In this document: positions 262 through 62,529 of the stretch, one piece after another
How positions within the stretch are numbered: position 1 is the stretch's first letter
Layout: each line of letters starts with the position of its first letter
Assembly: GCF_016097555.1 (NCBI RefSeq)
Contig: NC_054708.1
Span: 62,396,537 to 62,460,536, forward strand
DNA: 64,000 bases
Direction of reading: 5' to 3'
Origin: Gigantopelta aegis
Taxonomy: Eukaryota
Notes under the pieces: model-generated
Databases searched by the model: none
Told to the model about the DNA's origin: nothing
Seen by the model: the letters and a program-made list of their open reading frames with translations, nothing else
Program-made: the position numbers and the translations under genes

Positions 262-1765
262 ATACTCTTCAAAAAAAGAAACGCAAAAGGGTACAAATGG
301 GTTATAACTCCGATTTTATGTTTCCTATCGGTTCATGCTTTGTGAATATAAGGTCATTGCATGTCCCAAACACATTTCCACGGTTACATTCGATAAAACG
401 CAGCTACTGTACAATAAAGTTCCAAAATGTGAATATTCGCAAAAACGCAGCCACGTGCAAACCATGTCACCACTGCACGTGCGTTGTCTGCACGTGCAAC
501 ATGAACACCGACAGTATAAAAGTGCAGGGTGTTCGCTTGCCTGGCCTCTGTATCTGGCCGACAGTTGACAATCCAGGACATGCCACGTCTCAGTGAACCG
601 CAGAGAAACCATGCCATCGGCAGACTAGACGCAGGCGAATCCAGAACGGCCGTTGCCAGGGCATTCCATGTGTCCCCAAGCACCATCTCCAGACTGGGGG
701 ACCGTTACCAGCAACATGGATCAACACGTGACCTCCCTAGATCCGGTCGACCACGGGTCACTACCCCCGGGCAGGACCGCTACATCCGGGTACGCCACCT
801 TCGGGAACGATTGACTACTGCCACCTCCACAGCCGCAGCAATACCAGGTTTGCGCAGGATATCCGACCAGACCGTACGGAACCGCCTACGTGAGGTAGGA
901 ATTCGTGCCAGACGTCCAGTTCGAGGTGTCATCTTAACACCACAACACCGTCGACTCCGACTGCAGTGGTGCCAGATTCATCGACAATGGCCTCAACTGC
1001 GATGGAGACGGGTGTGGTTCATTGACGAGTCCCGATTTCTGCTCCGACGTCATGATGGAAGATGTCGCGTGTATAGGCGTCGTGGTGAACGTTATGCGGC
1101 AAACTGCGTGCAGGAAGTGGACAGATTCGGCGGGGGTAGTGTCATGGTGTGGGCAGCCATCTCACACACTGGCAGAACTGACCTGGTCCACGTGCAGGGC
1201 AACCTGAATGCACAGGGCTACATTGACCAGATCCTCCGGCCACACATCGTTCCAGTTATGGCCAACGCCAACGCAGTGTTCCAACATGACAACGCCAGGC
1301 CTCACACAGCACGTCTCACAACGGCTTTCCTACAGAACAACAACATTAATGTCCTTCCTTGGCCATCGATATCACCGGATTTGAACCCAATTGAGCATCT
1401 AAGGGACGAGTTGGACCGACGCCTCCGACAGCGACAACCACAGCCCCAGACCCTGCCTGAGCTGGCAGCAGCCTTGCAGGCCGAGTGGGCCACCATCCCC
1501 CGGGACGTCATCCGTACTCTGGTTGCTTCAATGTGCAGGCGGTGCCAGGCAGTTGTCAACACACGCGGAGGCCACACCCGGTATTGACTCCAGATGACCT
1601 TGACCTTGGTGGTGTGTCCTATCACTTGCTCACAATGGACTAGAGTGAATTGTGAACAATCCTGCAACATTTGGTAATTATCGGACTCACCATTCAATAA
1701 TTAAATCAATTCTCCAAATGTTACGACAATGTGGTTTTGCGTTTCTTCTTTTGAAGAGTATATAT
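262..1765 (+). mobile_element. Tc1-like DNA transposon (copy A), apparently full-length with TIR-like ends
   Basis: Shared terminal motif atatactcttcaaaa(a/g)aagaaacgcaaaa at 263-291 and inverted at 1739-1763. Internal intact transposase ORF. Length about 1.5 kb. Confidence 0.7.
529..1587 (+). CDS. Tc1/mariner-superfamily transposase (DD34E), intact 352-aa ORF
   Basis: N-terminal paired-like HTH (HVSPSTISRL, SGRPRVTTPGQDRYI). Catalytic motifs WFIDESRF ... FQHDNARPHTA ... SPDLNPIEHLRDEL. No internal stops. Confidence 0.9.
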   Translation: MFACLASVSGRQLTIQDMPRLSEPQRNHAIGRLDAGESRTAVARAFHVSPSTISRLGDRYQQHGSTRDLPRSGRPRVTTPGQDRYIRVRHLRERLTTATSTAAAIPGLRRISDQTVRNRLREVGIRARRPVRGVILTPQHRRLRLQWCQIHRQWPQLRWRRVWFIDESRFLLRRHDGRCRVYRRRGERYAANCVQEVDRFGGGSVMVWAAISHTGRTDLVHVQGNLNAQGYIDQILRPHIVPVMANANAVFQHDNARPHTARLTTAFLQNNNINVLPWPSISPDLNPIEHLRDELDRRLRQRQPQPQTLPELAAALQAEWATIPRDVIRTLVASMCRRCQAVVNTRGGHTRY

Positions 1766-2460: not shown

Positions 2461-3966
2461 ACACAATGGATGAACGTTCTAGTTGTCACTCTGCTGTTAG
2501 TAGCAGGATTTAGCTCAGTCAGTCGATCAACACAATGGACGAACGTTCTAGTTGTCACTCTGCTGTTAGTAGCAGGATTTAGCTCAGTCAGTCGATCAAC
2601 ACAATGGACGAACGTTCTAGTTGTCACTCTGCTGTTAGTAGCAGGATTTAGCTCAGTCGATCAACACAATGGACGAACGTTCTAGTTGTCACTCTGCTGT
2701 TAGTAGCAGGATTTAGCTCAGTCAGTCGATCAACACAATGGACGAACGTTCTAGTTGTCACTCTGCTGTTAGTAGCAGGATTTAGCTCAGTCAGTCGATC
2801 AACACAATGGACGAACGTTCTAGTTGTCACTCTGCTGTTAGTAGCAGGATTTAGCTCAGTCAGTCGATCAACACAATGGACGAACGTTCTAGTTGTCACT
2901 CTGCTGTTAGTAGCAGGATTTAGCTCAGTCAGTCGATCAACACAATGGACGAACGTTCTAGTTGTCACTCTGCTGTTAGTAGCAGGATTTAGCTCAGTCA
3001 GTCGATCAACACAATGGACGAACGTTCTAGTTGTCACTCTGCTGTTAGTAGCAGGATTTAGCTCAGTCAGTCGATCAACACAATGGACGAACGTTCTAGT
3101 TGTCACTCTGCTGTTAGTAGCAGGATTTAGCTCAGTCAGTCGATCAACACAATGGACGAACGTTCTAGTTGTCACTCTGCTGTTAGTAGCAGGATTTAGC
3201 TCAGTCAGTCGATCAACACAATGGACGAACGTTCTAGTTGTCACTCTGCTGTTAGTAGCAGGATTTAGCTCAGTCAGTCGATCAACACAATGGACGAACG
3301 TTCTAGTTGTCACTCTGCTGTTAGTAGCAGGATTTAGCTCAGTCAGTCGATCAACACAATGGACGAACGTTCTAGTTGTCACTCTGCTGTTAGTAGCAGG
3401 ATTTAGCTCAGTCAGTCGATCAACACAATGGACGAACGTTCTAGTTGTCACTCTGCTGTTAGTAGCAGGATTTAGCTCAGTCAGTCGATCAACACAATGG
3501 ACGAACGTTCTAGTTGTCACTCTGCTGTTAGTAGCAGGATTTAGCTCAGTCAGTCGATCAACACAATGGACGAACGTTCTAGTTGTCACTCTGCTGTTAG
3601 TAGCAGGATTTAGCTCAGTCAGTCGATCAACACAATGGACGAACGTTCTAGTTGTCACTCTGCTGTTAGTAGCAGGATTTAGCTCAGTCAGTCGATCAAC
3701 ACAATGGACGAACGTTCTAGTTGTCACTCTGCTGTTAGTAGCAGGATTTAGCTCAGTCAGTCGATCAACACAATGGACGAACGTTCTAGTTGTCACTCTG
3801 CTGTTAGTAGCAGGATTTAGCTCAGTCAGTCGATCAACACAATGGACGAACGTTCTAGTTGTCACTCTGCTGTTAGTAGCAGGATTTAGCTCAGTCAGTC
3901 GATCAACACAATGGATGAACGTTCTAGTTGTCACTCTGCTGTTAGTAGCAGGATTTAGCTCAGTCA
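2461..3966. repeat. 69-bp tandem array, about 22 nearly identical copies (one 65-bp variant)
   Basis: Unit is acacaatggacgaacgttctagttgtcactctgctgttagtagcaggatttagctcagtcagtcgatca. The unit 3' part matches a SINE tRNA-like head (ggacttagctcagtcggtcaagtgg at 53298). The array runs straight into a SINE body at 3962. Confidence 0.95.
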
Positions 3967-5281
3967 GTCGATCAAACTACCTTGGTGGATCCAGTCAACT
4001 GATTGTTTTTTTCTTGTTCCAACCAGTGCACGTCAACGGCCATCACCTATGGTATGTGCTTTACTGTCTTTGGGAAAGTGCATATAAAAGATCCCTTGCT
4101 GCTAATGGAAAAATGTAGCAGGTTTCATCTGATGACCGAGTCAGAATTACCAAAATGTTGGACATTCAATAGGTGATGATTAATTAATCAATGTGCTCTA
4201 GTAGTGTCGTTGAACAAATCAAACTTTTTTCTTTGCTGTTACTATTTATGTGATCCCCTATTTCTTTTCATCACTATACTCAACGCATAAATCAATGAGA
4301 TCCATCAGAACAGACAAATTACAGGAATCAGTTTAAAAACATGACTAGCTGATCCTCGGTAGCGAAAAGATGGGGAAACAATGGTATAGAGAATTTAATA
4401 ACTGCTGCTACCAAAAGGACTACCCTTAGCTCTTATATCAGTCTATTAACCAACATAACAAAACAACATATATATACCTTTCATCTGCATACAAGTCGGT
4501 AAAGTAATAATTTAAGAACCTATAGAAAACCATGTTAAATTATTTATTTACATTTTAAATTTTTTATGGTAAAGTGCGCGGTCTGTCTGGGATCGATCCC
4601 TGTCCGTGGGCCCATTGGGTAATTTCTCATTCCAGCCAGTGCACCACGACTGGTATATCAAAGGCTGTGGTATGTACTACCCTGTCTGTGGGATGATGCA
4701 TATAAAAGAACCCCATGAAGTAGCAACAGTGGGTTTCCTCTCTCAATATCTGTGGTCCGTAATCATATCTGGCACCATATAACCGTAAATAAAATGTGTT
4801 GAGTGCATCATTAAATAAAACATTTCTTTCTTTTTTTACGTACAAAAAAGAGCACGATTAACGTGCATGCACACACGCACAAACGGCAGGCTGAACGTGT
4901 CCGGCTGCACGTAGAACTGGATTCAACTAGGTTAAGTAATAATTAAGCCAACCTCTGGATGGCAAAACATGCGACAGTAGGCCCTTATACTGTTTTGTTT
5001 TGTTTGTTTGTTTGTTGTTATTTTTTGTGGGGTTTTGTGTTGTTGTTTTTTTGTGGGTTTTTTTTTTTGTGGGTTTTTTTTTTGGGGGGGGGGGAGAGGG
5101 GGTTATGCTGTACATTAAACCGAATGACCACTTTGCGAACCAGTCAAAATAATTTGCAAACGTTTAACGAAAAACGACTGGCTAGCCGTATGCCACATTT
5201 GTGACGCTGGAAAACATGTCAGTTTTCAAACCGAGTATTATAGCTTCTAACCCGTCTAAACTCTTTCCCCTGCTACCGGCC

Positions 5282-14017: not shown

Positions 14018-15620
14018 TTTTAATAATATGTGATTATTAAAGCCCGGTTTATGTTTCCCTGTTCAACCCATGCAGCCTGTTTACCTTCAATCTCACTGTT
14101 ACAAATAATATGTGATTATTAAAGCCTGGTTTGTGTTTCCTTGTTCAGCCCGTACAGCCTGTTTACCTTCAATCTCACTGTTACAAATAATATGTGATTA
14201 TTAATGCCCGGTTTGTGTTTCCTTGTTCAGCCTGTGCAGCCTGTTTACCTTTGATCTCACTGTGACAAATAATATGTGATTATTAAAGCCCGGTTTGTGT
14301 TCAGCCCATGCAACCTGTTTACCTTCGATCTTGCTGTGACAAATAATATGTGATTATTAAAGCCCGGTTTGTGTTTCCTTGTTCAGCCCGTGCAGACTGT
14401 TTACCTTCGATCTCACTGTGACAAATAATATGTGATTATTAAAGCCCGGTTTGTGTTCAGCCCGTTCAGCCTGTTTACCTTCGATCTCACTGTGACAAAT
14501 AATATGTGATTATTAAAGCCCGGTTTGTGTTCAGCCCGTGCAGCCTGTTTACCTTTGATCTCACTGTGACAAATAATATGTGATTATTAAAGCCCGGTTT
14601 GTGTTCAGCCCGTGCAGCCTGTTTACCTTCGATGTCACTGTGACAAATAATATGTGATTATTAAAGACCGGTTTGTGTTCAGCCTGTGCAGCCCGTTTAC
14701 CTTCGATCTCGCTGTGACAAATAATATGTGATTATTAAAGCCCGGTTTGTGTTTCCTTGTTCAGCCCGTGCAGCCTGTTTACCTTCGATCTCAATGTGAC
14801 AAATAATATGTGATTATTAAAGCCCGGTTTGTGTTCTGCCTGTGCAGCCTGTTTACCTTCGATCTCACTGTGACAAATAATATGTGATTATTAAAGCCCG
14901 GTTTGTGTTCAGCCCATGCAGCCTGTTTACCTTTGATCTCACTGTGACAAACAATATGTAATTATTAATGCCCGGTTTGTGTTTCCTTGTTCAGCCCATG
15001 CAGCCTGTTTACCTTTGATCTCACTGTGACAAACAATATGTGATTATTAAAGCCCGGTTTGTGTTCAGCCCGTGCAGCCTGTTTACCTTTGATCTCACTG
15101 TGACAAACAATATGTAATTATTAATGCCCGGTTTGTGTTTCCTTGTTCAGCCCGTGCAGCCTGTTTAACTTCGATCTCACTGTGACAAATAATATGTGAT
15201 TATTAAAGCCCGGTTTGTGTTCAGCCCGTGCAGCCTGTTTACCTTCGATCTCACTGTGACAAATAATATGTGATTATTAAAGTCCGGTTTGTATTTCCTT
15301 GTTCAGCCCGTTTACCTTCGATCTCACTGTGACAAATAATATGTGATTATTAAAGCCCAGTTTGTGTTCAGCCCGTGCAGCCTGTTTACCTTCGATCTCA
15401 CTGTGACAAATAATATGTGATTATTAATGCCCGGTTTAAGTTCAGCCCGTGCAGCCCGTTTACCTTTGATCTCACTGTGACAAATAATATGTGATTATTA
15501 AAGCCCAGTTTGTGTTTCCTTGTTCAGCCCGTGCAGCCTGTTTACCTTCGATCTCACTGTCACAAATAATATGTGATTATTAAAGCTTGGTTTGTGTTCA
15601 GCCTGTTTACCTTCGATCTC
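14018..15620. repeat. 74/81-bp intronic minisatellite, about 21 copies; the unit contains the MVP exon 21 end plus its splice donor
   Basis: Unit (minus strand) is ...atttgtcacagtgagatcgaag|gtaaacaggctgcacgggctgaacacaaaccgggctttaataatcacatatt. The first unit overlaps the authentic exon end TGTCACAGCGAGATCGAAG|gtaaacagg at 15601-15629. Confidence 0.9.
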
Positions 15621-15837
15621 GCTGTGACACTCGATGATAACCCGCTCGGCCTGGGCCTGAGCCTCGGCTTTAGCCTGGCCGCACGACTCGATAGCCGCCG
15701 AGATCGCCTGCAGCTCCAGCAACTTGGCGCGCTCCTTCTCAGACTCCTTCTCATTGAGGAGTTTCTGTCGCTCCAGTTCACCACGCGCTATCTGCTCATT
15801 TCTCTCTGCTTCATGAAATGCGGATGCTTCAATGGAC
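15611..15837 (-). CDS. MVP: MVP exon 21 ([76 protein letters not shown]-)
   Basis: Matches human ...[69 protein letters not shown]. Acceptor tatcacag, donor GAAG|GTAAAC. The last 19 nt plus the donor are copied in the downstream array. Confidence 0.85.
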
Positions 15838-16614: not shown

Positions 16615-17439
16615 CTGAAATTTCATCCAAAATCTAACGTGTAGATTATAATGTGCTGAGGTGTGACTGAAAACAATTTCTTCTACAATTCTTGAAACAT
16701 TATTAGCACAAGGATTTTATCCATCAATTTTTATTTTTAATATTTTGGCCAATAATGGCCATCACAATTAAACCTTCACCTTCAGAAATGAAAATAACCC
16801 TGAACAAAACAATGCAGAAAACTTTAATTTGTGTCTAAACAAAATTCAAATAGAAACTTGTAAGATAAAAGTTTGTTTTGTTTATAACGACACCACTAGA
16901 ACATATTGATTTATTATCATCGGCTATTGGATGTCAAACATTTGGTAATTTTGACATACACATGTAGTCTTAGAGGGGAAACCCGCTACATTTTTCCATT
17001 AGTAGCATGTGATCTTTTATACGCACCATCCCAGACAGGATAGCACATACCACTGGCTGACCCCATAAGATGACAAGTAACATATCTTCTATATAGTGGT
17101 ACAAACAACTACATGTACATGTAATAGTGTAGTTTATAATGATGCTAAGAGGGTTAAGAGTTAGCCTCTTTAAAACAACTGATTGCTTAATACACATCTC
17201 TCTGTACTCTATTAGATGATTCAGGCTAATAGTAAACTGATCTCTTGAGGTACATGTAGGTACAAAGATGTAACTCTCCAGACTTTAATGCCAACCGAAA
17301 AGTGTTTCTGACCATGTTCTGTGACAAAAAGCTAGCAATAACCCATTCAACACTACTTTACTACACCCAGCACATTTTCTATGTGACAAAAATGTTGTAA
17401 TTTTTCCCAGCATAAAGGCTTAAAGTGACAGACCCTAGT

Positions 17440-20200
17440 TTTTAAACACTACAACATATTTTCACTATTAACACGTTGACTGCTGCCCACGAGTATATTC
17501 GTATGCTGAGCGCACCAGATTTTGCCACTACGAGTTTACTCGTAGTAAAACCAGTGCTGTGTCGTATTAAATTAAAGTTGTCAGCAATGGCAATAACACA
17601 ATTAGTAACCTTTCTGGCAATGACTAATAACAAATTGATGTAATAATCAATGAAATTATTTATTAATTAATGTTTGAATGATTTTGATTGTGAACACAAG
17701 TCACAGCATTTCATAATGGAAATATCTTGACACATATCTCTTTGACTAAATCATTTATAGTTATAATGTTAAAAATCAACATAAATACAGGAACAGATTT
17801 ATTCCTAATGTTTCAGAGCAATTTGGACTATGTTTGAAACATTCATATAAATGATGAATCAATGATCGTCTTCATTGATGAAAGTCAAAACTATAACACA
17901 GCGATCAAAAGAAAAAACCGTTTTGCCATGTATAATGTGTCTATGCTTGAACTATTAATAAATGTGGGTTTATTGTCAGTGTCATATTGAATTGGTATGT
18001 CCATTATTCTGACATGTGATAAACTTTGAAACATTTTCCCACACAAACAGCTGGCTTCCTGGGGCAGACTTCACAGATGTAACAGGATTCCCGTCTTGTA
18101 CCGGCCTTTGTGCACACTCGGCAAGGTTTGGTAGGTCGCTCTTTCTTCTCTGTGGGAGGCAGTGGTGCAAGGTAATGGAATGTCTCATTTACTGGAGCCT
18201 GGGAATGTGCTGGGCCGTGGTCATGTAATTTGTCATAGACATCACCAAGCAGGTGAATTGTAATTCTAGGATATGCAGGACAATCTTCTTATACCACCGG
18301 ATTGTCTTGCGCAGCGCCGGGTAGTAAGACAGCATTTGATCTGACCTGTCTACTCCAGCCATGCCATTGTTGTAATCTCGGACTGTGTTCGGCTTTCTTG
18401 ACAGCTTGTCATTCCGATTTCTAACATCAACCATCTCAATTCGATGCATGTTGCTGATTGTAAGAACTTTGCATTTGTCTTTCCATTTGCAAACTACCAC
18501 TGATTCAGACCGCTTCCAAACATGTTCCCCCTTCTTCAACTTCTGTTTGATTAAATCTTTTGGATTTTCTTTTCTGTCAAATCGCAGAGTTCCACAAAGA
18601 TAGGTTGATCGGTTTGTCATCTTCTTCACCAGACTCACAGAATTGTAATAATTATCTGTGTACACCACATGGCCTTTGTCTAGGTAGCCGTCCAAGAGGT
18701 CTAGAACAGTTGCAGCAACTTGACCATAGCCATCATCATCAGTTAGGTGGACACCACTGTATACCCAAATCTTCAGAACAGTGCCTCAAGGCTTGCACAG
18801 TTCATAGAGTTTGATTCCATATTTATGACGTTTATTCTTGATATACTGGCGAAACAGCAATCTGCCACGCCAAAGTACCATGGACTCATCAATAGAGAGA
18901 TCTTTCCCTGGATAGTAAATAGCCGGCATGACATCGTTGAAATGATCCAGAACAGTGCGTATCTTGAACAAGCGATCATCATTATGTTGATCATTGTCTG
19001 CAAAATGCCAGAAACGCAAAAGTAGTTGGAAATGGTTGCGGCTCATGACACCACCAAAAAATGGTGAACTGTATAGAACATCAGTACTCCAGTAGTGTTG
19101 TATAGTAGGCAAGGTTTTTGGACCCATGTGAAGCAACAATGCAATGAACTGTTTCATTTCCTTAGCATCCGTGTCCTTCCAAGATTTCAAATGTGATTCT
19201 CTTCTTAAAGGACACTGCTTGTTTATTTCCACTGCAGCATATCGATTTGTTTCTGTAACCATTTTATCTATCAACTGTGGTGTCAGAAATAAATCAAAAT
19301 ATGCACCGGGCGATGTATCCTGTAAGTCCATTCTAAGACCAGAGTTTTCAGTGAAAGCAAAGTCAGGTGGATCTTGGGCAACATCTAACCATGTATGCAC
19401 TGGGACAGCACAATTTCCACGCCCATCTGCTCCATTCCGTCCTGTGCCTGGTGCTGGGCTGGAAACTGCTTGTCTATTAAACAAAATTGCAGCTCTACCT
19501 TGACCACGATATCGTACACTTCGACCTCTAGCTGGTGTAACCGCACCACGCCTACCACGGCCATCACCGCTTCCAGGAGTTCCACGACCACGAGGTCCTC
19601 GAGTGCGAACACCACGAAATCTAGACCTACCACGTGTTGCCGGTTGTACCCCATCGTCACTTGAAACATACGAGTCTGATGAAATCATTGTATCACCTTC
19701 TTCACTGCTCCAGTTAGTATGAAGATCTAGTGAATCAGTATCACTAATATCCATATCAGGATCATCACTTTCCTCATCTGTTTCCATCATCAAAGCGGCA
19801 ACTTGCTCAGCAGAAAGGTTTCTAGTCGCCATTTTGGAAAGTAGCAAGTACTGAGTATCAAAATTACGTAACAAAAACCAATGACGCAATAAAATCTGGG
19901 AGGCACGTGACTCGTAGCTGGCAAATACAATACAGTGATTGCATAATGTTGCCAAACTACGACTTGTACTTGGCATACCAAATAAAAATGTTATATTTCA
20001 TTGCCAGCTACGAGTAATTTCATGTCACATGCTCTTCCATAAACGTACTAAGTAATATGCATAAAATAACTTAGAAATAACATTTATGGGTAAATAAAGG
20101 AAATGCATATCTTTATATGACTTGGCAAACTGGACCAGCCGCCATTTTGTTTACGGCACTCAACGTGTTAAAGACGTTTCTGATAATTTAACTTAGAAGT
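17440..20200 (-). mobile_element. piggyBac-like DNA transposon relic inside an MVP intron (boundaries approximate)
   Basis: ccctagttttTTAAacac at 17444. Subterminal inverted repeat ttaacacgttgac (17468) and its inverse gtcaacgtgttaa (20163). Repeated ctacgagt subterminal motifs at both ends. Confidence 0.5.
17982..19976 (-). pseudogene. piggyBac-type transposase (DDE_Tnp_1_7-like) broken into three ORF pieces (396+168+68 aa) by two frame disruptions
   Basis: Peptides SPGAYFDLFLTPQLIDKMVTETNRYA, YYPGKDLSIDESMVLWRGRLLFRQYIKNKRHKYGIKLYELC, HVVYTDNYYNSVSLVKKM and CGTLRFDRKENP are piggyBac hallmarks. C-terminal Cys-rich piece CLPQRRKSDLPNLAECAQRPV. Confidence 0.8.
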
Positions 20201-20975: not shown

Positions 20976-22262
20976 ATGTCGTTGTTAAAGTGGCTGAACA
21001 CAGTTCAGAAACCAAAATTATCGGGTTTACCAAATCCTAAAGAATGTTTGTCTGCAGAACAAGTGATGTCTTTTGAAACTGCCAACAACGCCACCGAACA
21101 GATAGAGACTAGTAAAGTGAACCCAAGAAAACGTAAACACAGTGATTACGGTCTACATGTATATACTGAAGAAACTTGTGCTAAGTTTTCCCGTTATGCA
21201 ATCGATCATGGAGCGGCTCGCAAATTTACTGTTGATCTGGGTAAAAAACTTAATGAAAGCACTGTTAGAAGTTTAAAGGCGTCATACTTAAAAACAACAA
21301 GGATCACCAATGATGGCAGTTCATTAAAGTCATTGCCGAAAGGTCAACGTGGACAGCCCCTTATGCTTTGCAAGTACGATGACTTGGTGAAAGAATGGGT
21401 CAAAACCATGAGGATTCATGGGGGTGTCATCACCACTGCCACCGTGACCGGTGCCGCGATCGGAATTGTGAAGAAACTTGAACAATCAAAGTTGCGCGAG
21501 TTTGGTGGGCCACTACAAATCACAAACACTTGGTCGAAATCATTTTTATCCAGGATGGGCTATGTCAAACGGAAAGGGACGAAAGGAGTAAAAAAAAAGT
21601 GCCCGGTGATTTTGAAACGTTAAAATCACAATTTATCGATCGTGTGAAAAAGGCTAAGAGTGAAAATAACATCCCTGATGAACTCATCATCAACTGGGAC
21701 CAGACGGGTGTCAACCTTGTACCTGGGGGCGATTGGACATTTGAAGAAAAAGGTGCCAAACAAGTGACCATCAGTGGCAAAGATGACAAGCTCCAGATTA
21801 GTCCTGTTGGCTGTCTCGATGGCTGAAGAACTTCTCCCACCACAGGTGACATATGGTGGTAAAACTGACAAGTGTCACCCGCATGTGGAATTCCCGGAAG
21901 AATGGAATGTTACACACACAGAGTCACACTGGATTAACGAAAATTCAATGTTGGAATTCTCTGAGGAAATTGTAATTCCTTACATGGATAAAATGAGAAC
22001 AAATCTCAAGATGGCAGATGATCAACGATGTATTGCTATCTTTGACGTGTACAAGGCACACCAGTGTAAAACATTGCTAGACAAACTGAAAAAAGCTCAC
22101 ATTCAGGTGGTCTTCGTTCCTGCTGTGTGCACCGATCAGCTACAGCCGCTGGACTTAACGTTCAATAAAAACTATAAGATGGAACTAAAAAGGTGTTTCA
22201 TTCACACGCGAAATAAAGCATTCTACATTTTCACAGGCTGTAACAAGGGTCTATGCCTTTAA
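20976..22262 (+). pseudogene. pogo/Tigger-like (DDE_1) transposase relic, split across three frames
   Basis: psq/CENP-B-like HTH region (AIDHGAARKFTVDLGKKLNESTV). Tc5-type HTH (ITNTWSKSFLSRMGYVKRKGTKG). DDE_1 motifs NWDQTG ... FDVYKAH ... TDQLQPLDLTFNK. Frameshifts near 21620 and 21780. Confidence 0.6.
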
Positions 22263-30169: not shown

Positions 30170-30822
30170 TGCAATCATCAAGCTTTAACTGTAGAAATGT
30201 CGAGATAGATGGACATGTGGATGATTAGTGCCCAATGGGCCCACTGAAGGGGATCAACTTATGAAACAATTCATCCAGCTTTAACTGTATGCACCATCCC
30301 ACAGGCAGGATCACACATACCACGGCCTTTAATATACAAGTTGTGGTGTACTGGCTGAACGATAAGTTGCCCAATGGGCCCACTGAAGGGGATCGATCTG
30401 CCTGTTACTGAAAGAAACAATTCATCACAGCTTTAACTGTAGAAAATGTCGAGATAGATGGACATGTGGATGATGAGTTGCCCAATGGGCCCACTGAAGG
30501 GGATCGATCTGCCTGTTACTGAAAGAAACAATTCATCACAGCTTTAACTGTAGAAAATGTCGAGATAGATGGACATGTGGATGATGAGTTGCCCAATGGG
30601 CCCACTGAAGGGGATCGATCTGCCTGTTACTGAAAGAAACAATTCATCACAGCTTTAACTGTAGAAAATGTCGAGATAGATGGACATGTGAACGATAAGT
30701 TGCCCAATGGGCCCACTGAAGGGGATCGATCTGCCTGTTACTGAAAGAAACAATTCATCACAGCTTTAACTGTAGAAAATGTCGAGATAGATGGACATGT
30801 GGATGATGAGTTGTAAACACAC
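30170..30822. repeat. 114-bp tandem array (about 4 full copies plus degenerate ones) derived from the SINE core and tail
   Basis: Unit is gttgcccaatgggcccactgaaggggatcgatctgcctgttactgaaagaaacaattcatcacagctttaactgtagaaaatgtcgagatagatggacatgtggatgatga. Ends 1 nt before the MVP exon donor at 30823. Confidence 0.9.
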
Positions 30823-33696: not shown

Positions 33697-36600
33697 TCCT
33701 GCCCCTGCAAAGATGGGAGTCGTAATGCATACTGGTAATAATAATGGCAAAGATGGGAGTCGTAATGCATACTGGTAATAATAATGGCAAAGATGTCGTA
33801 ATGCATACTGGTAATAATAATGGCAAAGATGGGAGTCATAATGCATACTGGTAATAATAATGGCAAAGATGTCATAATGCATACTGGTAATAATAATGGC
33901 AAAGATGTCGTAATGCATACTGGTAATAATAATGGCAAAGATGGGAGTCAAAGCATATGGTAATAATAATGGCAAAGTAATGCATACTGGTAATAATAAT
34001 GGCAAAGATGGGAGTCGTAATGCATACTGGTAATAATAATGGCAAAGATGGGAGTCGTAATGCATACTGGTAATAACAATGGCAAAGATGGGAGTCGTAA
34101 TGCATACTGGTAATAACAATGGCAAAGATGGGAGTCGTAATGCATACTGGTAATAATAATGGCAAAGATGGGAGTCGTAATGCATACTGGTAATAATAAT
34201 GGCAAAGATGGGAGTCATAATGCATACTGGTAATAATAATGGCAAAGATGTCATAAAAGTAATAATAATGGCAAAGATGTCATAATGCATACTGGTAATA
34301 ATAATGGCAAAGATGGGAGTCATAATGCATACTGGTAATAATAATGGCAAAGATGTCATAATGCATACTGGTAATAATAATGGCAAAGATGGGAGTCGTA
34401 ATGCATACATAATGGCAAAGATGGGAGTCGTAATGCATACTGGTAATAATAATGGCAAAGATGGGAGTCGTAATGCATACTGGTAATAATAATGGCAAAG
34501 ATGGGAGTCGTAATGCATACTGGTAATAATAATGGCAAAGATGGGAGTCGTAATGCATACTGGTAATAATAATGGCAAAGATGGGAGTCGTAATGCATAC
34601 TGGTAATAATAATGGCAAAGATGGGAGTCGTAATGCATACTGGTAATAATAATGGCAAAGATGGGAGTCGTAATGCATACTGGTAATAATAATGGCAAAG
34701 ATGGGAGTCATAATGCATACTGGTAATAATAATGGCAAAGATGTCATAATGCATACTGGTAATAATAATGGCAAAGATGTCATAATGCATACTGGTAATA
34801 ATAATGGCAAAGATGGGAGTCGTAATGCATACTGGTAATAACAATGGCAAAGATGGGAGTCGTAATGCATACTGGTAATAATAATGGCAAAGATGGGAGT
34901 CATAATGCATACTGGTAATAATAATGGCAAAGATGGGAGTCGTAATGCATACTGGTAATAACAATGGCAAAGATGGGAGTCGTAATGCATACTGGTAATA
35001 ATAATGGCAAAGATGGGAGTCGTAATGCATACTGGTAATAATAATGGCAAAGATGGGAGTCATAATGCATACTGGTAATAATAATGGCAAAGATGTCATA
35101 ATGCATACTGGTAATAATAATGGCAAAGATGTCATAATGCATACTGGTAATAATAATGGCAAAGATGGGAGTCGTAATGCATACTGGTAATAATAATGGC
35201 AAAGATGGGAGTCATAATGCATACTGGTAATAATAATGGCAAAGATGTCATAATGCATACTGGTAATAATAATGGCAAAGATGTCATAATGCATACTGGT
35301 AATAATAATGGCAAAGATGGGAGTCATAATGCATACTGGTAATAATAATGGCAAAGATGTCATAATGCATACTGGTAATAATAATGGCAAAGATGGGAGT
35401 CGTAATGCATACTGGTAATAATAATGGCAAAGATGGGAGTCATAATGCATACTGGTAATAATAATGGCAAAGATGGGAGTCGTAATGCATACTGGTAATA
35501 ATAATGGCAAAGATGGGAGTCGTAATGCATACTGGTAATAATAATGGCAAAGATGGGAGTCGTAATGCATACTGGTAATAATAATGGCAAAGATGGGAGT
35601 CATAATGCATACTGGTAATAATAATGGCAAAGATGTCATAATGCATACTGGTAATAATAATGGCAAAGATGTCATAATGCATACTGGTAATAATAATGGC
35701 AAAGATGGGAGTCATAATGCATACTGGTAATAATAATGGCAAAGATGTCATAATGCATACTGGTAATAATAATGGCAAAGATGGGAGTCGTAATGCATAC
35801 TGGTAATAATAATGGCAAAGATGGGAGTCGTAATGCATACTGGTAATAATAATGGCAAAGATGGGAGTCGTAATGCATACTGGTAATAATAATGGCAAAG
35901 ATGGGAGTCGTAATGCATACTGGTAATAATAATGGCAAAGATGGGAGTCGTAATGCATACTGGTAATAATAATGGCAAAGATGGGAGTCGTAATGCATAC
36001 TGGTAATAATAATGGCAAAGATGGGAGTCGTAATGCATACTGGTAATAATAATGGCAAAGATGGGAGTCGTAATGCATACTGGTAATAATAATGGCAAAG
36101 ATGGGAGTCGTAATGCATACTGGTAATAATAATGGCAAAGATGGGAGTCATAATGCATACTGGTAATAATAATGGCAAAGATGTCATAATGCATACTGGT
36201 AATAATAATGGCAAAGATGTCATAATGCATACTGGTAATAATAATGGCAAAGATGGGAGTCGTAATGCATACTGGTAATAACAATGGCAAAGATGGGAGT
36301 CGTAATGCATACTGGTAATAATAATGGCAAAGATGGGAGTCATAATGCATACTGGTAATAATAATGGCAAAGATGGGAGTCGTAATGCATACTGGTAATA
36401 ACAATGGCAAAGATGGGAGTCGTAATGCATACTGGTAATAATAATGGCAAAGATGGGAGTCGTAATGCATACTGGTAATAATAATGGCAAAGATGGGAGT
36501 CATAATGCATACTGGTAATAATAATGGCAAAGATGTCATAATGCATACTGGTAATAATAATGGCAAAGATGTCATAATGCATACTGGTAATAATAATGGC

Positions 36601-37143
36601 AAAGATGGGAGTCGTAATGCATACTGGTAATAATAATGGCAAAGATGGGAGTCGTAATGCATACTGGTAATAATAATGGCAAAGATGGAAGTCATAATGC
36701 ATACTGGTAATAATAATGGCAAAGATGTCATAATGCATACTGGTAATAATAATGGCAAAGATGTCATAATGCATACTGGTAATAATAATGGCAAAGATGG
36801 TAGTCGTAATGCATACTGGTAATAACAATGGCAAAGATGGGAGTCGTAATGCATACTGGTAATAATAATGGCAAAGATGGGAGTCGTAATGCATACTGGT
36901 AATAATAATGGCAAAGATGGGAGTCGTAATGCATACTGGTAATAATAATGGCAAAGATGGGAGTCATAATGCATACTGGTAATAATAATGGCAAAGATGT
37001 CATAATGCATACTGGTAATAATAATGGCAAAGATGTCATAATGCATACTGGTAATAATAATGGCAAAGATGGGAGTCGTAATGCATACTGGTAATAACAA
37101 TGGCAAAGATGGGAGTCGTAATGCATACTGGTAATAATAATGG
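33697..37143. repeat. 3.4-kb AT-rich minisatellite of 40-bp and 36-bp units with higher-order alternation
   Basis: Units are ggcaaagatgggagtcgtaatgcatactggtaataataat (40) and ggcaaagatgtcataatgcatactggtaataataat (36). Roughly 88 units. Begins directly at the tRNA-like head end of a SINE at 33690. Confidence 0.95.
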
Positions 37144-37292
37144 CACAGTTGGCAATGTGCTAGCCAAACAAAGCAGTTTATCTGTGGTATTTCTTTAATG
37201 TTTACATCTGAAAAGTTCTTCAATACACTTGAGATTTATACGTGGTACCATACTTGTGATATCTGTGACATTAACAACATGCCTACATGTAC

Positions 37293-39869: not shown

Positions 39870-40360
39870 TAATCATGGACCGATCTTGGTGGTGTTGTGG
39901 TTAAGCCAGCAGACATAAGGCATGTAGGTACAGTGTTCACAGCCCGGTACCAGCTCCCACCCAAAGCGAGCACCCTCTTCTCTCTCACTAACGACTATCC
40001 CATTGTTCTAGACAGATAGCCCAGATAGCTGAGATGTGTGCCCAGGACAGCATGCTTGAACCATAATTGGATATAAGCACGAAAATAAGTTGAAATGAAC
40101 TGAAATTAATCCTGGACTATTGGATGTCAAACATTTGGTAATTTTAACATGTATTCTTAGAGAGGAAACCTGCTACATTTTTCCATTAGTAGCAAGGGAT
40201 CCTTTATATGCACCACCCCACAGACAGGACAGCAAATACCACAGCTTTTGATATATATACCCATTCATGGTGCACTGGCTAGAATGAGCAATTGCCCAAT
40301 GGGCCCACCGATGGATATCGATCCTAGACCGACTGCAAGCAAGCGCTTTGCCACTGTGCT
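39870..40360. mobile_element. Two adjacent SINEs: type-3 (39880-40110, +) and type-1 (40100-40360, -)
   Basis: Type-3 head ggtggtgttgtggttaagccagcagacataaggcatgtaggtacagtgttcacagcccggtacc. Body ...gcccaggacagcatgcttgaaccataattggatataagcacgaaaataagttgaaatgaa. Confidence 0.7.
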
Positions 40361-42999: not shown

Positions 43000-43255
43000 G
43001 TTTTATTTATTTAATGACACCACTAGAGCACACTGATTTAATAATCATCGACTATTGAATGTCAGACATTTGGTAATTTTGACAAATAGCCTTAAAGTGA
43101 AAACCTGCTACATTTTTCAATTAGTAACAAGCGATCTTGTATATGCACCATCCCACAGATAGGATAGCACCTACCATGGCCTATGATATATCACTTGTGA
43201 TGTACTGGCTGGAATGAGAAATATCCCAATGGGCCCATTGACTTTGAAATCATGG
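43000..43255 (-). mobile_element. tRNA-derived SINE (type 1) fragment ending about 20 nt from the MVP exon 6 donor
   Basis: accactagagcacactgatttaataatcatcgactattgaatgtcagacatttggtaattttgac ... cccaatgggcccattgac. Confidence 0.7.
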
Positions 43256-49975: not shown

Positions 49976-50794
49976 AAAGAAACAAGGGCTATATTATATG
50001 CACTTTCCCTTAGGAAAGACAGTACATACCACAGACTTTAATATGCCAGTTGTCCATCAATGGAGAACAATCCTGTAACCTATCTAACCTCAGGAAAACA
50101 CTCTACGAATGACCTACCCAAACATATAAGTTAAAGTTTGTTTTTGTTTAACGACACCACTAGAGCACATTGATTAATTATTAATCATTGGCTATTGAAT
50201 GTACAACATTTGGTAATTCTGACATGTAGTCATCAGAGGAAACCCACTACCATACATTTTTCCTAATGCAGCAAGGGATCTTTTATATGCATTTTCCCAT
50301 AGACAGGAAAGCACATACCATGGCCTTTGTCCAGTTGTGGTGCACTGGTTGGAAAAAGTAAAACCCCAATCAGTTGATGGGTCCACATTAGATGTATATG
50401 CATGTGCAGTGTGCATTTGCAGTGTCACCCAGGAAGTATTGCCACTGGTTTGACAACCAATGATTATCTTTTTTCTGTCAAAATAAGTAATTATCGATCT
50501 GAATTAATTTTTAATTTGGTGACATCAGATGTTTCTGTGTCATTTGAAATCTGACAGGCAGAGGATGTTGGAGGGCAGGGCAGCTGGGACAGAGTCCATA
50601 GGAACCTTCCAATTTAATTCCAGTGGCAGAATTGTGAAATGTTCGTGTTCGACAGAATTACGGAGTTGCACTAATAAAAAATCAAGACTTTATGGTACAA
50701 CTACTACTAGGCTGTTTCCAGCTTGAAAACACATTTTAATAATCATATTAGGATGATATCACTCTAAAATGATTTGTTTTAATGGTTTGAAATG

Positions 50795-51115
50795 AAGGGT
50801 TTTTTTGTTAATGAAACCACTAGAGCACATTGATTTATTAATCATCAGATGTAGGATGTCAAACGTTTGGTAATTTTGACAGATAGTCTTAGAGAGGAAA
50901 CCTGCTACATTTTTCCATTAGTAACAAGGGATCTTTTACATGCACCATCCCACAGACAGGATAGCACATACCATGGTCTTTGATATACTAGTCATGGTGC
51001 ACTACATGGAACGAGAAATATCCCAATGGGCCCACCAATGGGGATCGATTGCAGACCGACTCTGCATCAAGCAAGTGCTTTACCACTGGGCTACTTCCCG
51101 ACCCAGATTGAAATG
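50795..51115 (-). mobile_element. tRNA-derived SINE (type 1), full length, minus orientation
   Basis: Tail accactagagcacattgatttattaatcat at the low-coordinate end. Head rc(gggtcgggaagtagcccagtggtaaagcacttgcttgatgcagagtcggtctgcaatcgatcccc) at the high-coordinate end. Confidence 0.8.
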
Positions 51116-51830
51116 ATGTAAAAATGCATTTAGGCTACTTGACCGGCCTTGATGGCACAGTGGTTAAGCCATTGGACTATAGGCTGGTAGGTACAGGATT
51201 TGCAGCTCGGTACCAACTCCAACCCAGATTGAAATGATGTAAAAATGCATTTAGGCTACTTGACCGGCCTTGATGGCACAGTGGTTAAGCCATCGGACTA
51301 TAGGCTGGTAGGTACAGGATTTGCAGCTAGGCACCAACTCCGACCCAGATTGAAATGATGTAAAAATGCATTTAGGCTACTTGACCGGCCTTGATGGCAC
51401 AGTGGTTAAGCCATTGGACTATAGGCTGGTAGGTACAGGATTTGCAGCTCGGTACCAACTCCGACCCAGATTGAAATGATGTAAAAATGCATTTAGGCTA
51501 CTTGACCGGCCTTGATGGCACAGTGGTTAAGCCATCGGACTATAGGCTGGTAGGTACAGGATTTGCAGCTCGGTACCAACTCCGACCCAGATTGAAATGA
51601 TGTAAAAATGCATTTAGGCTACTTGACCGGCCTTGATGGCACAGTGGTTAAGCCATCGGACTATAGGCTGGTAGGTACAGGATTTGCAGCTCGGTACCAA
51701 CTCCGACCCAGATTGAAATGATGTAAAAATGCATTTAGGCTACTTGACCGGCCTTGATGGCACAGTGGTTAAGCCATCGGACTATAGGCTGGTAGGTACA
51801 GGATTTGCAGCTCGGTACCAACTCCAACCC
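51100..51830. repeat. 120-bp tandem array (6 copies) built from the tRNA-like head of a third SINE type; the SINE body follows at 51830-52015
   Basis: Unit is cccagattgaaatgatgtaaaaatgcatttaggctacttgaccggccttgatggcacagtggttaagccatcggactataggctggtaggtacaggatttgcagctcggtaccaactccga. The same head and body appear as a single copy at 39880-40110. Confidence 0.9.
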
Positions 51831-52094
51831 AGAGCGAGTTCTTAAGGGCTCAATGGGTAAGTGTAAGGCCACTACACTCTCTTTTCTCTCACTAACCAAC
51901 TAACAACTAACCAACTGTCCTGGACAGGCAGCCCAGAGAGCTGATGTGTGTGCCCAGGACATCGTGCTTGAACCTTAATTGGATATAAGCACGAAAATAA
52001 GTTGAAATGAATAAATGGGTTAATTGGTTTAAAATAAGTTCCAGTATGAACATATATAGATAACGTACAGATAGCATATGAAGGCAAAACTTAC

Positions 52095-52158: not shown

Positions 52159-53264
52159 CTGAAACAAATTAAATAAAACCAATAATAATAATAATAATAA
52201 TAATGTGCGTACATGTACCTGTACCATATACAATACATACAAATATAGGCCATAGGATTTCCTTTTTTTTCTTTTCAATTCCATGCCTTATGATCAAGGG
52301 AACCACTGTTTTTAGGTTCCATGAATACAAGTCATGGGGTATGATAATCATGGGAAACAAAATGTTTTGGTTCAGTGATTTTACTGACATGTTACCGGAA
52401 ACAATTGTTTCCATAAAATCCAAGGGCCTGCAAATTTGTCTAATTATGTAAATTATATTTGTACGGTATGTGCACAATGTAATACTTTTATTGAAGAATT
52501 TACTTTATTTATGTTTGGGTTCATGAATGTAAGAATGAACCAAAAAAAACCCCAAACAATGCACACTGTATGATTTTGTTTACTTGCAGCTTAATTTTCT
52601 CAGTTCAGGACTATTTTACACTGTTATGGAGTGACAACTACATGCATTTATCAAGATGTGCATATATATTTCCACTTCCAGTGTTTGACAAATATTTGAG
52701 AAAGTCACAAGCCCTGACAGAAGCTTTGGCTAGTGCCCTATCTTATACATTAATACAGAAATACATTTTTTTTCTTCTTCTTTTTTTTTGGGGGGGGGGG
52801 GGAGGGAGGGGGGCTAAAAAATGTCATGTACAAAAAGAAAACAAAAACTAAAATAAAGTCCAAATGGGTCACATTAGAAGGTAAAGTTTTACTTGACAGG
52901 AAAGCAAAGAAATATTTGTTTAATGACACCTCAGCACATTTTAAACAACCAGTGGATGGGATGGAAAAAAAAACAAACCCAAGTACATTGAGGGTGATCA
53001 ATCCTGTGATTTATCACATCTTGGGCATAAACTACATCACCGAGTTACATCCTGTGCCATTTTGGAGCGAATGTTTGTTTTGGTTAACACCACCACTAGA
53101 GCACATTGATTTATTAATCAACGGCTATTGGATGTCAAACATGTGATAATTCTTACATATTGTCTTAGAGAGGAAACCAGCCACATTTTCCCATCAGCTA
53201 GTAGCAAGGGATCTTTTATGTGCACCATCCTAGAGACACTAGCTGGAATGAGGTTCCAATAACC

Positions 53265-53600
53265 GCTCTGATGGGGATCGATTCCAGGCTGGGGAGGGAC
53301 TTAGCTCAGTCGGTCAAGTGGTTGTTAGAGGTGTTTGTGTTACAGGATAGAACCACTTCAGTGGATCCTTCAACTGACTGGGTTTTCTCGTTCCAACCAG
53401 TGCACCACAACTGGTCAAAGGCCATGGTATATGCTTTCCTGTCTGTGGGAAAGTGCATATAAAAGATACCTTTCTGCATTAGAAAAAATGTAGCCGGTTT
53501 CCTCTGATGACGAGTCAGAATTACCAAATGTTTGACATCCAATAGCTGATGATTAATGAATCAATGTGCTCTAGTGGTGTCATTAAACAAAACAAACAAA
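53265..53600 (+). mobile_element. tRNA-derived SINE (type 1), full length
   Basis: Head ggggagggacttagctcagtcggtcaagtgg. Core ccagtgcaccacaactggtcaaaggccatggtatatgc...gtgcatataaaagatacc. Tail ...gtgctctagtggtgtcattaaacaaaacaaacaaac. Confidence 0.8.
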
Positions 53601-60910: not shown

Positions 60911-62529
60911 ATATACTACTCAAAAGAATTTAAGGGTCAGACGATATTTTCGACATTATTTTCTGAATGTCAATTATATTAGCTAGACCATAATGTCACG
61001 CATGGTATTGTTCCATTTTGACGAAAGTGGGTCTAAGCAACCCATAAATGAATTAAAATCCACTGTCATTGACACTGTCGACTAGTTCTAATGGCGAAAA
61101 CATGCTTACATTTGCACGTAAATTAGGGCGAAAGCGAAAGGTCTGCTAAGTGCCCATAACTTGCTTTTTCACAAAGCGCTTCATTTGCACGCTTTGCATG
61201 TGTATTCCATGTTCCCAATGCTGAATTTCCGTATAATTGGAGCTTGCGTTCGTGTACGGTGCACACTCCAAATTCGACAATGGTACGACGTCAGCTGACT
61301 ATCGAAGATCGAGGAAGGGCTATTGCTTGGCTTCAGGATGGCAATACGCAAAGAAATGTTGCTCTGAGACTTGGTGTCAGTCAGAGTGTCGTTGGCCGAC
61401 TGTGGCAACGGTACCAAGCAACGAATTCTGTTCGAAATCGTCCACGTTCGGGAAGACCCAGAAGCACTACAAATAGAGAGGACCGCTACATCACCAATAT
61501 GGATCTACGTCAACGCACAACCACTGCACGCCGATTACGTGACAATCTGCGGACTGCGACTGGAACTCGAGTGTCTGATTAAACCATACGCAATCGTCTC
61601 AGAGCCAATAATCTACGCTGCCGTCGCCAGGCTGTTCGACCACCACTCCTACCACGTCACAGAACGGTCAGACGTCACTGGTGCACGCTTCATCTGCGGT
61701 GGCAACGTGTTCAGTGGGGTCGAGTGATGTTCACTGATGAGTCCAGGTTCAGTCTCCAGTTCAACGACGGTCGGGTTCGTGTCTACAGACGTCCTGGGGA
61801 GCGCTTCGCTGACGTTAACGTTAGACAACGTCACCGGTTCGGTGGTGGCAGCTACATGGTGTGGGGCGGCATCTCTATCCACCACAGGACCCCCCTCTAT
61901 GTGGTGGATGGCAATCTGAATGGAATCCGCTATCTGAATGAGATTATTCGGCCGTTGGTTCTCCCAGGCCTTCAGCAGATTGGCGGCGGGGCAGTTCTGC
62001 AGGATGACAATGCCAGACCCCACCGCGCCAGGGTGGTAACGGACTTTCTCAGACAACAAGGTATCGCCAGGATGGATTGGCCAGCATATTCGCCTGACTT
62101 GGCCCCAATAGAGCACGCCTGGGACGAAGTAGGCAGGAGAGTTCGGGATAACCATGCCCCTCCGGCCAACCTTCATGATCTGGGTCAACTTCTTATGGCA
62201 GAGTGGCAGGCCATTCCCCAAGAGTTCTTCAGACGTCTGATCAACAGCATGAGGCAACGATGTGTCGAGTGTATTCGCGCCAGGGGTGGATTCACACACT
62301 ATTAAACGAATGTTCTAATGTGTAAAATCCATGTTTGACAACCTTCAACTTTGACAGCATGTCATGTGACTTTCTTGTATACAGTGACGTTTATTTGTGT
62401 TTTTTTGTAAATATGGAACAATAAATTAAATTTTTGGTGTAGTTTACATCATCAATCTAATACACTCTGAAACTTATTTGGTTATACATTTTTGACCCTT
62501 AAATTCTTTTGAGAAGTATATTAGGGACG
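60911..62529 (+). mobile_element. Tc1-like DNA transposon (copy B), about 1.6 kb with about 25-bp TIRs
   Basis: 5' end tactcaaaagaatttaagggtca (60916-60940) is inverted at 62500-62525. Its termini share atatact..tcaaaag with copy A. Confidence 0.75.
61244..62305 (+). pseudogene. Tc1-like transposase, collinear 353 codons but interrupted by a single in-frame TAA (61580-61582)
   Basis: ORF 61244..61582 and ORF 61724..62305 share one reading frame. Read through, the segment gives ...SD*TIRNRLRANNLRCRRQ...RVMFTDESRF... Copy A has Q (CAA) at the stop position. Motifs FTDESRF, QDDNARPHRA and SPDLAPIEHAWDE are intact. Confidence 0.85.

Follow-up and report, generated by a model that had tools for sequence, protein, structure and literature searches.

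The catalytic triad of the Sleeping Beauty transposase consists of D153, D244 and E279 (PMC4820933). Among Tc1-like transposases a "non-K248" group has been set apart by an Ala at the position of Sleeping Beauty residue 246 and by P, I or C, not Lys, at that of residue 248; it includes Minos, Tc3, Tc1-2Xt, Bari and Impala, and both Sleeping Beauty and Tc1 proper fall outside it (PMC6943129). The host considered here, the deep-sea vent snail Gigantopelta aegis, has a genome made up of 64% repeats and 32% DNA transposons, with TcMar-Tc1 as a main class (PMC7736800), an expansion of 342 transposase genes (PMC7895826), and a genome-wide GC content of 37.2-37.5% (PMC7895826, PMC7736800). Because this genome is so rich in repeats and in Tc1 elements, a Tc1 copy with an open reading frame is to be expected in it and is no rarity, and the statement in a preliminary description of the present locus that most animal genomes have few intact Tc1 copies is not valid for this species (PMC7736800, PMC7895826). 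These two published accounts concern the same host and the same element class as the present analysis, but they deal in bulk percentages and gene counts only, and the GC-rich, apparently low-copy family reported below is not described in them.

We analyzed a window of 64 kb of the Gigantopelta aegis genome, with a GC content of 36.5%, in which the preliminary description had placed a Tc1-like transposon at 262-1765. That a real, structurally complete copy of a Tc1-family (DD34E) cut-and-paste transposon is present at this locus is confirmed, but the boundaries first assigned to it have to be corrected: the element proper occupies 263-1760, a length of 1,498 bp, with a TA outside each end (261-262 and 1761-1762). 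Its features, in window coordinates and with residues numbered from the ATG at 580, are the following.

261-262, no strand: left flanking TA, putative target-site duplication, read from the sequence; an A precedes it, giving an inferred target of A-TA-T.
263-288, + strand: left terminal inverted repeat (TIR), TACTCTTCAAAAAAAGAAACGCAAAA, from the repeat search and motif count.
289-579, + strand: 5' untranslated region, read from the sequence, with a GC content of 43.5% (over 263-579) and a TATA-like box, TATAAAAG, at 515-522.
580-1587, + strand: transposase coding sequence, 335 aa plus stop, free of introns, internal stops and frameshifts, from the ORF list, the homologue search (100% coverage) and the end-to-end alignment A1.
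613-753, + strand: first helix-turn-helix (HTH; PAI-like), ending in the GRPR AT-hook at G56-R59 and carrying the private change W40G (codon 697-699), from Pfam HTH_28/HTH_23.
808-984, + strand: second HTH (RED-like), from Pfam HTH_Tnp_Tc3_2.
1009-1437, + strand: DDE_3 catalytic (RNase H-fold) domain, from Pfam, the alignment and the SB100X structure match.
1021-1023 and 1402-1404, within the DDE_3 domain: private changes S148I and W275R, respectively.
1024-1026, 1288-1290 and 1393-1395: catalytic D149, D237 and E272.
G184-G186, within the DDE_3 domain: GGGS glycine-rich box.
1588-1734, + strand: 3' untranslated region, with AATAAT/ATTAAA polyadenylation-like hexamers at 1696-1705, read from the sequence and of putative function.
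1735-1760, - strand: right TIR, with one A/G mismatch against the left, from the repeat search, the L008 comparison and the motif count.
1761-1762, no strand: right flanking TA, putative target-site duplication, followed by a T, read from the sequence and from the junction comparison.

The preliminary description had stated that both ends carry the same inverted terminal motif, and in this it was right: a repeat search recovered inverted arms at 260-288 and 1735-1763 that are 29 nt long and complementary at 28 of 29 positions, so the ends are indeed inverted copies of each other. When up to 3 mismatches are allowed, the whole 64-kb window contains exactly two matches to the 26-nt terminal motif, one at each end of the element and in opposite orientation, against an expectation of 0.00 from 100 dinucleotide-preserving shuffles. 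Since the same A/G mismatch between the two TIRs is present in the sister copy L008, described below, it is a feature of the family and not damage to the window copy. The motif TACTCT[TC]CAAAAAAAG[AT][AT]ACGCA is found, moreover, at both ends of relatives from other assemblies whose transposases are 70-76% identical to that of the window (L002/L003, L004 and L006), and this conservation across assemblies is much stronger evidence that these repeats are the functional ends than a single match of 28 in 29 could be.

The junction A-TA|TACTCT is present at 10 of 10 ends from 5 independent insertions (those of the window, L008, L002, L003 and L004), from which we infer that the target is ATAT. These junctions are also compatible with a duplication of 4 bp, ATAT, in which case the first bases of the element would be ACTCTTC. 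Tc1 and Sleeping Beauty prefer AT-rich palindromic targets, and ATAT fits this preference. The 162-bp MITE-like piece that flanks the element has no other copy in the window, which therefore offers no empty site for the TA duplication. No second inverted block was found beyond the 29-nt arms, and on this ground ends of the IR/DR type were rejected.

Between these ends, the open reading frame 529-1587 is uninterrupted. Read from the GTG at 529 it would encode 352 aa, and read from its first ATG, at 580, it encodes 335 aa. The intact frame proposed in the preliminary description therefore stands, but its length of 352 aa does not, having been counted from a bacterial-style start; we place the start at the ATG because this is the eukaryotic start and because most homologues are 335 aa long. 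The TATA-like box, for which a promoter role may be proposed, lies some 60 nt 5' of this ATG. The protein has Pfam matches to DDE_3 (1.5e-15), HTH_Tnp_Tc3_2 (1.5e-10) and HTH_28/HTH_23, and its best match among solved structures is the catalytic domain of the Sleeping Beauty transposase SB100X (PDB 5cr4, E=2.8e-34). In the alignment to SB100X, D149, D237 and E272 fall in register with Sleeping Beauty D153, D244 and E279, the paired motifs being WFIDES/WSDETK, FQHDNA/FQHDND and NPIEHL/NPIENL (window/SB100X), and the 34 residues between D237 and E272 give the correct DD34E spacing. The catalytic columns are invariant or at least 90% conserved among the 115 sequences of alignment A1, in which the columns of SGRPR (residues 55-59) are likewise at least 90% conserved. 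The complete HTH region, the DD34E residues and the absence of stops, all read from the DNA at the outset, are thus upheld by the Pfam matches, the SB100X alignment and the uninterrupted frame, and Tc1-like identity is upheld by the Pfam domains and the same alignment together with the TIRs.

A protein search returned 3,291 relatives, of which the closest full-length sequence, of 335 aa, is 98% identical, with the next at 83% and then at 76% and below. Most of the closest relatives come from Logan and ENA assemblies, and the matches that carry names belong to molluscs, among them Littorina saxatilis, with proteins at 57-60% identity. L004 is a TARA metagenome scaffold that carries a related element, and the ENA assembly ERZ26168041 holds two further insertions, L002 and L003, at two sites, with the element at 1183-2682 in each. 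These two are 98.9% identical over 1,508 bp, have ends of the form ATA|TACTCTCC, and encode the same intact 335-aa protein, 74% identical to the window transposase; their family looks to have been recently active in another host. The differences between them (0 nonsynonymous and 6 synonymous) were left out as evidence of selection, because both contigs were retrieved through an identical protein and the argument would be circular.

The family of the window element looks to be low-copy. Its protein cluster at 90% identity has 2 members, and that of the other Tc1-like family present in the window has 143. Searches of the 64-kb window by blastn and tblastn found no other copy of the family, the only relative being one of 46% identity at 61295-62302. 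No record of the exact window protein (335 aa, or 352 aa with V or M as its first residue) was found in the gene calls of the public collection, and two other ORFs of the window, looked up in the same exact way, gave no record either. The exact 30-nt terminal sequence had 0 matches in JGI metagenome contigs and 0 in prokaryotic genome contigs, where host sequence might have turned up as contamination of symbiont bins.

One sister copy is nevertheless available for comparison. L008 (Logan, SRR30000411, 1,814 bp) is a full-length copy with flanks, 99.3% identical to the window copy, and L001 (Logan, SRR30000414, 1,382 bp), which is internal to the element, is identical to L008 over their overlap. 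L008 is bordered on its left by an (AT)n tract and on its right by sequence of no relation, flanks that are unlike those of the window copy, so that L008 represents a second insertion site and not the same locus. Two unrelated TE families of the window both have their best match, at 99%, in SRR30000411, and the two runs probably derive from the same species as the window, or from a sister species. The preliminary description had conceded that its case would fall if the genome held only a single diverged copy, and had advised a search for further identical copies with TA target-site duplications. The first is not what was found, L008 being full length, 99.3% identical and located elsewhere, and the search yielded one other TA-flanked site, in a run whose link to the window species consists of the shared 99% TE matches.

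The window copy and L008 differ at 11 of 1,498 positions (0.73%); copy-to-copy divergence had been put forward in the preliminary description as an estimate of age, and by this measure the copy is young. They fall evenly on both kinds of sequence, 3 of them within the 490 nt of non-coding DNA and the other 8 within the 1,008 nt of coding DNA, and none is an indel. Six of the coding differences are nonsynonymous (N11H, W40G, Q144R, S148I, W275R and G319C) and 2 are synonymous, which gives a dN/dS of 1.03 by the Nei-Gojobori method, compared with approximately 0.05 between lineages of the family. The probability of 6 or more nonsynonymous changes among 8 is 0.002 at an omega of 0.1 and 0.03 at an omega of 0.2, and the substitution pattern of the window copy is that of neutral drift.

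The direction of these changes was read from an 83%-identical outgroup (P0122) and from 113 further homologues in alignment A1. The state in L008 is ancestral at 5 of the 6 replacement positions (N11, W40, S148, W275 and G319); for the sixth, Q144R, which lies in a variable column and involves a CpG, the derived state may be that of L008. Two of the replacements on the window lineage stand close to catalytic residues. S148I adjoins catalytic D149 at a position that is S or T in 113 of 113 homologues, and W275R lies three residues past catalytic E272, where 112 of 113 homologues have W and one has R. W40G falls in the first HTH, at a position that is W in 77 of 113 homologues and where G is not among the residues listed. 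The catalytic triad, the GRPR motif and the TIRs are all free of substitutions, and the ends of the window copy are identical to those of L008. Among the columns with at least 90% conservation, the window protein deviates at only one, against a homologue median of 3, many of these homologues being genomic copies of unknown activity. We found no literature data on mutations at the equivalent Sleeping Beauty residues, S152 and W282.

The account that we consider the likeliest is that this is a young, structurally complete, low-copy Tc1-family copy in neutral decay, with a transposase of its own that is probably weakened or inactive and with ends that an L008-type transposase could mobilize in trans. 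The probable loss of function follows from S148I and W275R beside catalytic residues and W40G in the first HTH, and so from conservation, and mobility in trans would be retained because the ends match the sister copy exactly. Of the description "apparently autonomous" that was first given to the element, the intact reading frame and both TIRs survive; the family-invariant residues and the purifying selection that autonomy would imply do not, given S148I, W275R and a dN/dS of 1.03.

If the element works as its relatives do, transcription would begin downstream of the TATA-like box at 515-522 and end after the AATAAT/ATTAAA hexamers at 1696-1705, and the 335-aa transposase would use its two HTH subdomains, PAI and RED, together with the GRPR hook to bind the TIRs of ~26 nt. 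Acting as a dimer within a synaptic complex, it would then excise the element by means of the D149/D237/E272 site, with reinsertion at the TA within an ATAT and duplication of that TA. In the window copy, the activity encoded in cis is probably reduced or lost through I148 and R275, while a protein of the L008 type could act on its ends. Since its insertion the window copy would have evolved neutrally, to a distance of about 0.7% from a master-like sister sequence.

The same element can be viewed in terms of its origin. It is the innermost of a nest three deep, in which a SINE-like repeat was interrupted by a 162-bp MITE and the MITE by the Tc1 element, and its coding sequence has a GC content of 57.8%, a GC3 of 57% and a CpG observed/expected ratio of 0.84, compared with a GC content of 36% and a CpG ratio of 0.56 in the rest of the window. 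The 0.73% divergence, the innermost position and the foreign composition of the coding sequence together indicate recent insertion. Relatives that are 70-83% identical, from a marine metagenome and other assemblies and including the TARA scaffold, have a GC3 of 36-47%. Because the family is rich in GC, undepleted in CpG and low in copy number, and because its known copies are at least 99.3% identical, a recent and possibly horizontal invasion can be entertained. That the whole family is a very recent horizontal arrival in this vent snail, and may still transpose through master copies of the L008 type, seems to us a possibility on the unlikely side.

Also unlikely is a fully autonomous, currently active window copy in which S148I, W275R and W40G are tolerated. 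Such a copy would accord with the intact frame, the DD34E triad, the GRPR motif and the glycine-rich box, with TIRs identical to those of the sister copy, with the 0.7% divergence and a place in the youngest layer of a nested insertion, and with departures from conserved columns that are few relative to those of other database members. It would have to accommodate a dN/dS of 1.03 with private changes, an Ile immediately before D149 where 113 of 113 homologues have S or T, and an Arg shortly after E272 where 112 of 113 have Trp, and it would have to do so when the unmutated form is what the read data contain twice, independently.

A further, quite improbable, reading is that the 11 differences arose as errors of assembly or polishing, such as repeat-induced mis-polishing of a long-read assembly, and that the real locus is intact and of the L008 type. 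In its favor, transversions account for six of the 11, an unusual share among natural substitutions, and the exact window protein, whether of 335 or 352 aa, is missing from the public collection gene calls. Indels, the usual error type of long reads, are on the other hand absent, and coding and non-coding parts are affected evenly, with the density that TE copies commonly show once they have diverged. The other Tc1-like element of the window also differs from its Logan counterpart by 0.74% (11/1490), as real variation between copies predicts.

Finally, a domesticated transposase gene, co-opted by the host and no longer a mobile element, has the intact frame as its sole support and is effectively refuted: the TIRs are intact and bordered by TA, another insertion site carries a further copy, dN/dS is neutral and conserved residues have changed, and the element is nested inside other repeats with a composition foreign to the host.

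The window also holds a second Tc1-like element, a piggyBac element, the MITE, SINE-like repeats and satellite repeats. The MITE-like piece, 162 bp in total, is interrupted by the Tc1 element and so occupies 165-260 and 1763-1826; it has 16-nt TIRs (CATGGGCATACATAGG, 15/16), a subterminal inverted pair of GGGGGGTTC and an apparent 5-bp target duplication, TATGT, at 160-164 and 1827-1831, and occurs once in the window. The SINE-like dispersed repeat is ~240 bp long with an A-rich tail, and the window contains at least 10 copies of it, which are 73-92% identical. The copy at ~100-164 and 1827-2010, at the left edge of the window, forms the outermost layer of the nest, and others include those at 4050-4227, 16865-17050, 40105-40291, 43000-43240, 50133-50354, 50804-51018, 53070-53234 and 53384-53597. 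An ENA contig of 602 kb (L010) has the dispersed repeats of the window, and related SINE-like copies flank a Tc1 element there.

The second Tc1-like element lies at 60913-62519, with TA flanks and with TIR arms at 60911-60939 and 62493-62521 (29 nt, 28/29) whose opening motif, TATACT.CTCAAAAG, is similar to that of the first element; the proteins of the two are 46% identical. Its coding region (~61277-62305, + strand) is a 341-codon frame with a single in-frame stop (RVSD*TIRN). The best database match, P0271, is 99% identical and intact and belongs to a 143-member cluster from run SRR30000411; at the DNA level the element is 99.3% identical to L009, and its family is far commoner than that of the first element. 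A piggyBac-type transposase at 18189-19976 on the - strand consists of two ORFs of 396 and 168 aa, with Pfam PF13843 in homologues, and its ORF at 18786-19976 (-) is 96-97% identical, at partial coverage, to RefSeq proteins of Gigantopelta aegis. At 20976-22262 on the + strand, adjacent ORFs of 215 and 162 aa are putative transposase-type pieces, the second with a DDE-like FVPAVCTDQLQPLD region. Five long tandem arrays lie at 2461-3975 (69-bp unit x 22, 99% matches), 14022-15629 (74/156/230-bp units, ~1.6 kb), 30361-30813 (111 bp x 4), 33707-37152 (40-bp unit x 88, 3.4 kb) and 51098-51833 (121 bp x 6), and in the ORF list the arrays of the 69-bp and 40-bp units are spanned by long ORFs that are spurious.

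The analysis documents a single, well-preserved Tc1/DD34E family, hitherto without a name, whose ends have the form TACTCT[TC]CAAAAAAAG..ACGCA, whose inferred target is ATAT and whose transposase, of 335 aa, belongs to the A-x-P (non-K248) type. Its value is mainly for annotation, the genome being of a class already known to be dominated by DNA transposons. It also illustrates that an open reading frame taken alone overstates autonomy, since comparison with a sister copy reveals neutral drift and the loss of two near-invariant residues. A sequence of the L008 type, and not the window copy, would be the candidate for a test of Tc1 activity in molluscs or for a gene-transfer tool. The contrast in composition with the host offers a modest lead on horizontal transposon transfer among marine invertebrates, and a recent horizontal invasion that was still active would be of modest interest if true.

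The TLEWI, also Tc1-like elements of mollusc hosts, are described as having spliceosomal introns (bioRxiv 10.1101/656579), whereas the window ORF has none. An intron-containing element of the TLEWI type was rejected for this locus, the ORF being continuous and collinear with its homologues and with Sleeping Beauty.

It is to the Tc1 family, and to Sleeping Beauty in particular, that the window element is most readily compared. They share a single intronless transposase of ~340 aa with a paired-like bipartite HTH and GRPR, a DDE_3 domain of RNase H fold with DD34E, a glycine-rich box and the motif NPIE(H/N)LW, and an element of ~1.5 kb that is bounded by TIRs and targets TA. The ends differ. 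Those of Sleeping Beauty are IR/DR structures of ~230 bp, while the window TIRs are short and simple, at ~26-29 nt; the TIRs of Minos and Bari are likewise much longer. The termini of Tc1, Tc3 and Sleeping Beauty are typically CAGT, whereas that of the window element is TACTCTTC. After the second catalytic Asp, the window transposase reads D-N-A-R-P where Sleeping Beauty reads D-N-D-P-K. Within FQHDNARPH, A239 stands at the position of Sleeping Beauty D246 and P241 at that of K248, and all close homologues are alike in this respect, so that the residue criterion of PMC6943129, taken by itself, places the window transposase in the non-K248 group, with Minos, Tc3 and Bari and apart from Sleeping Beauty.
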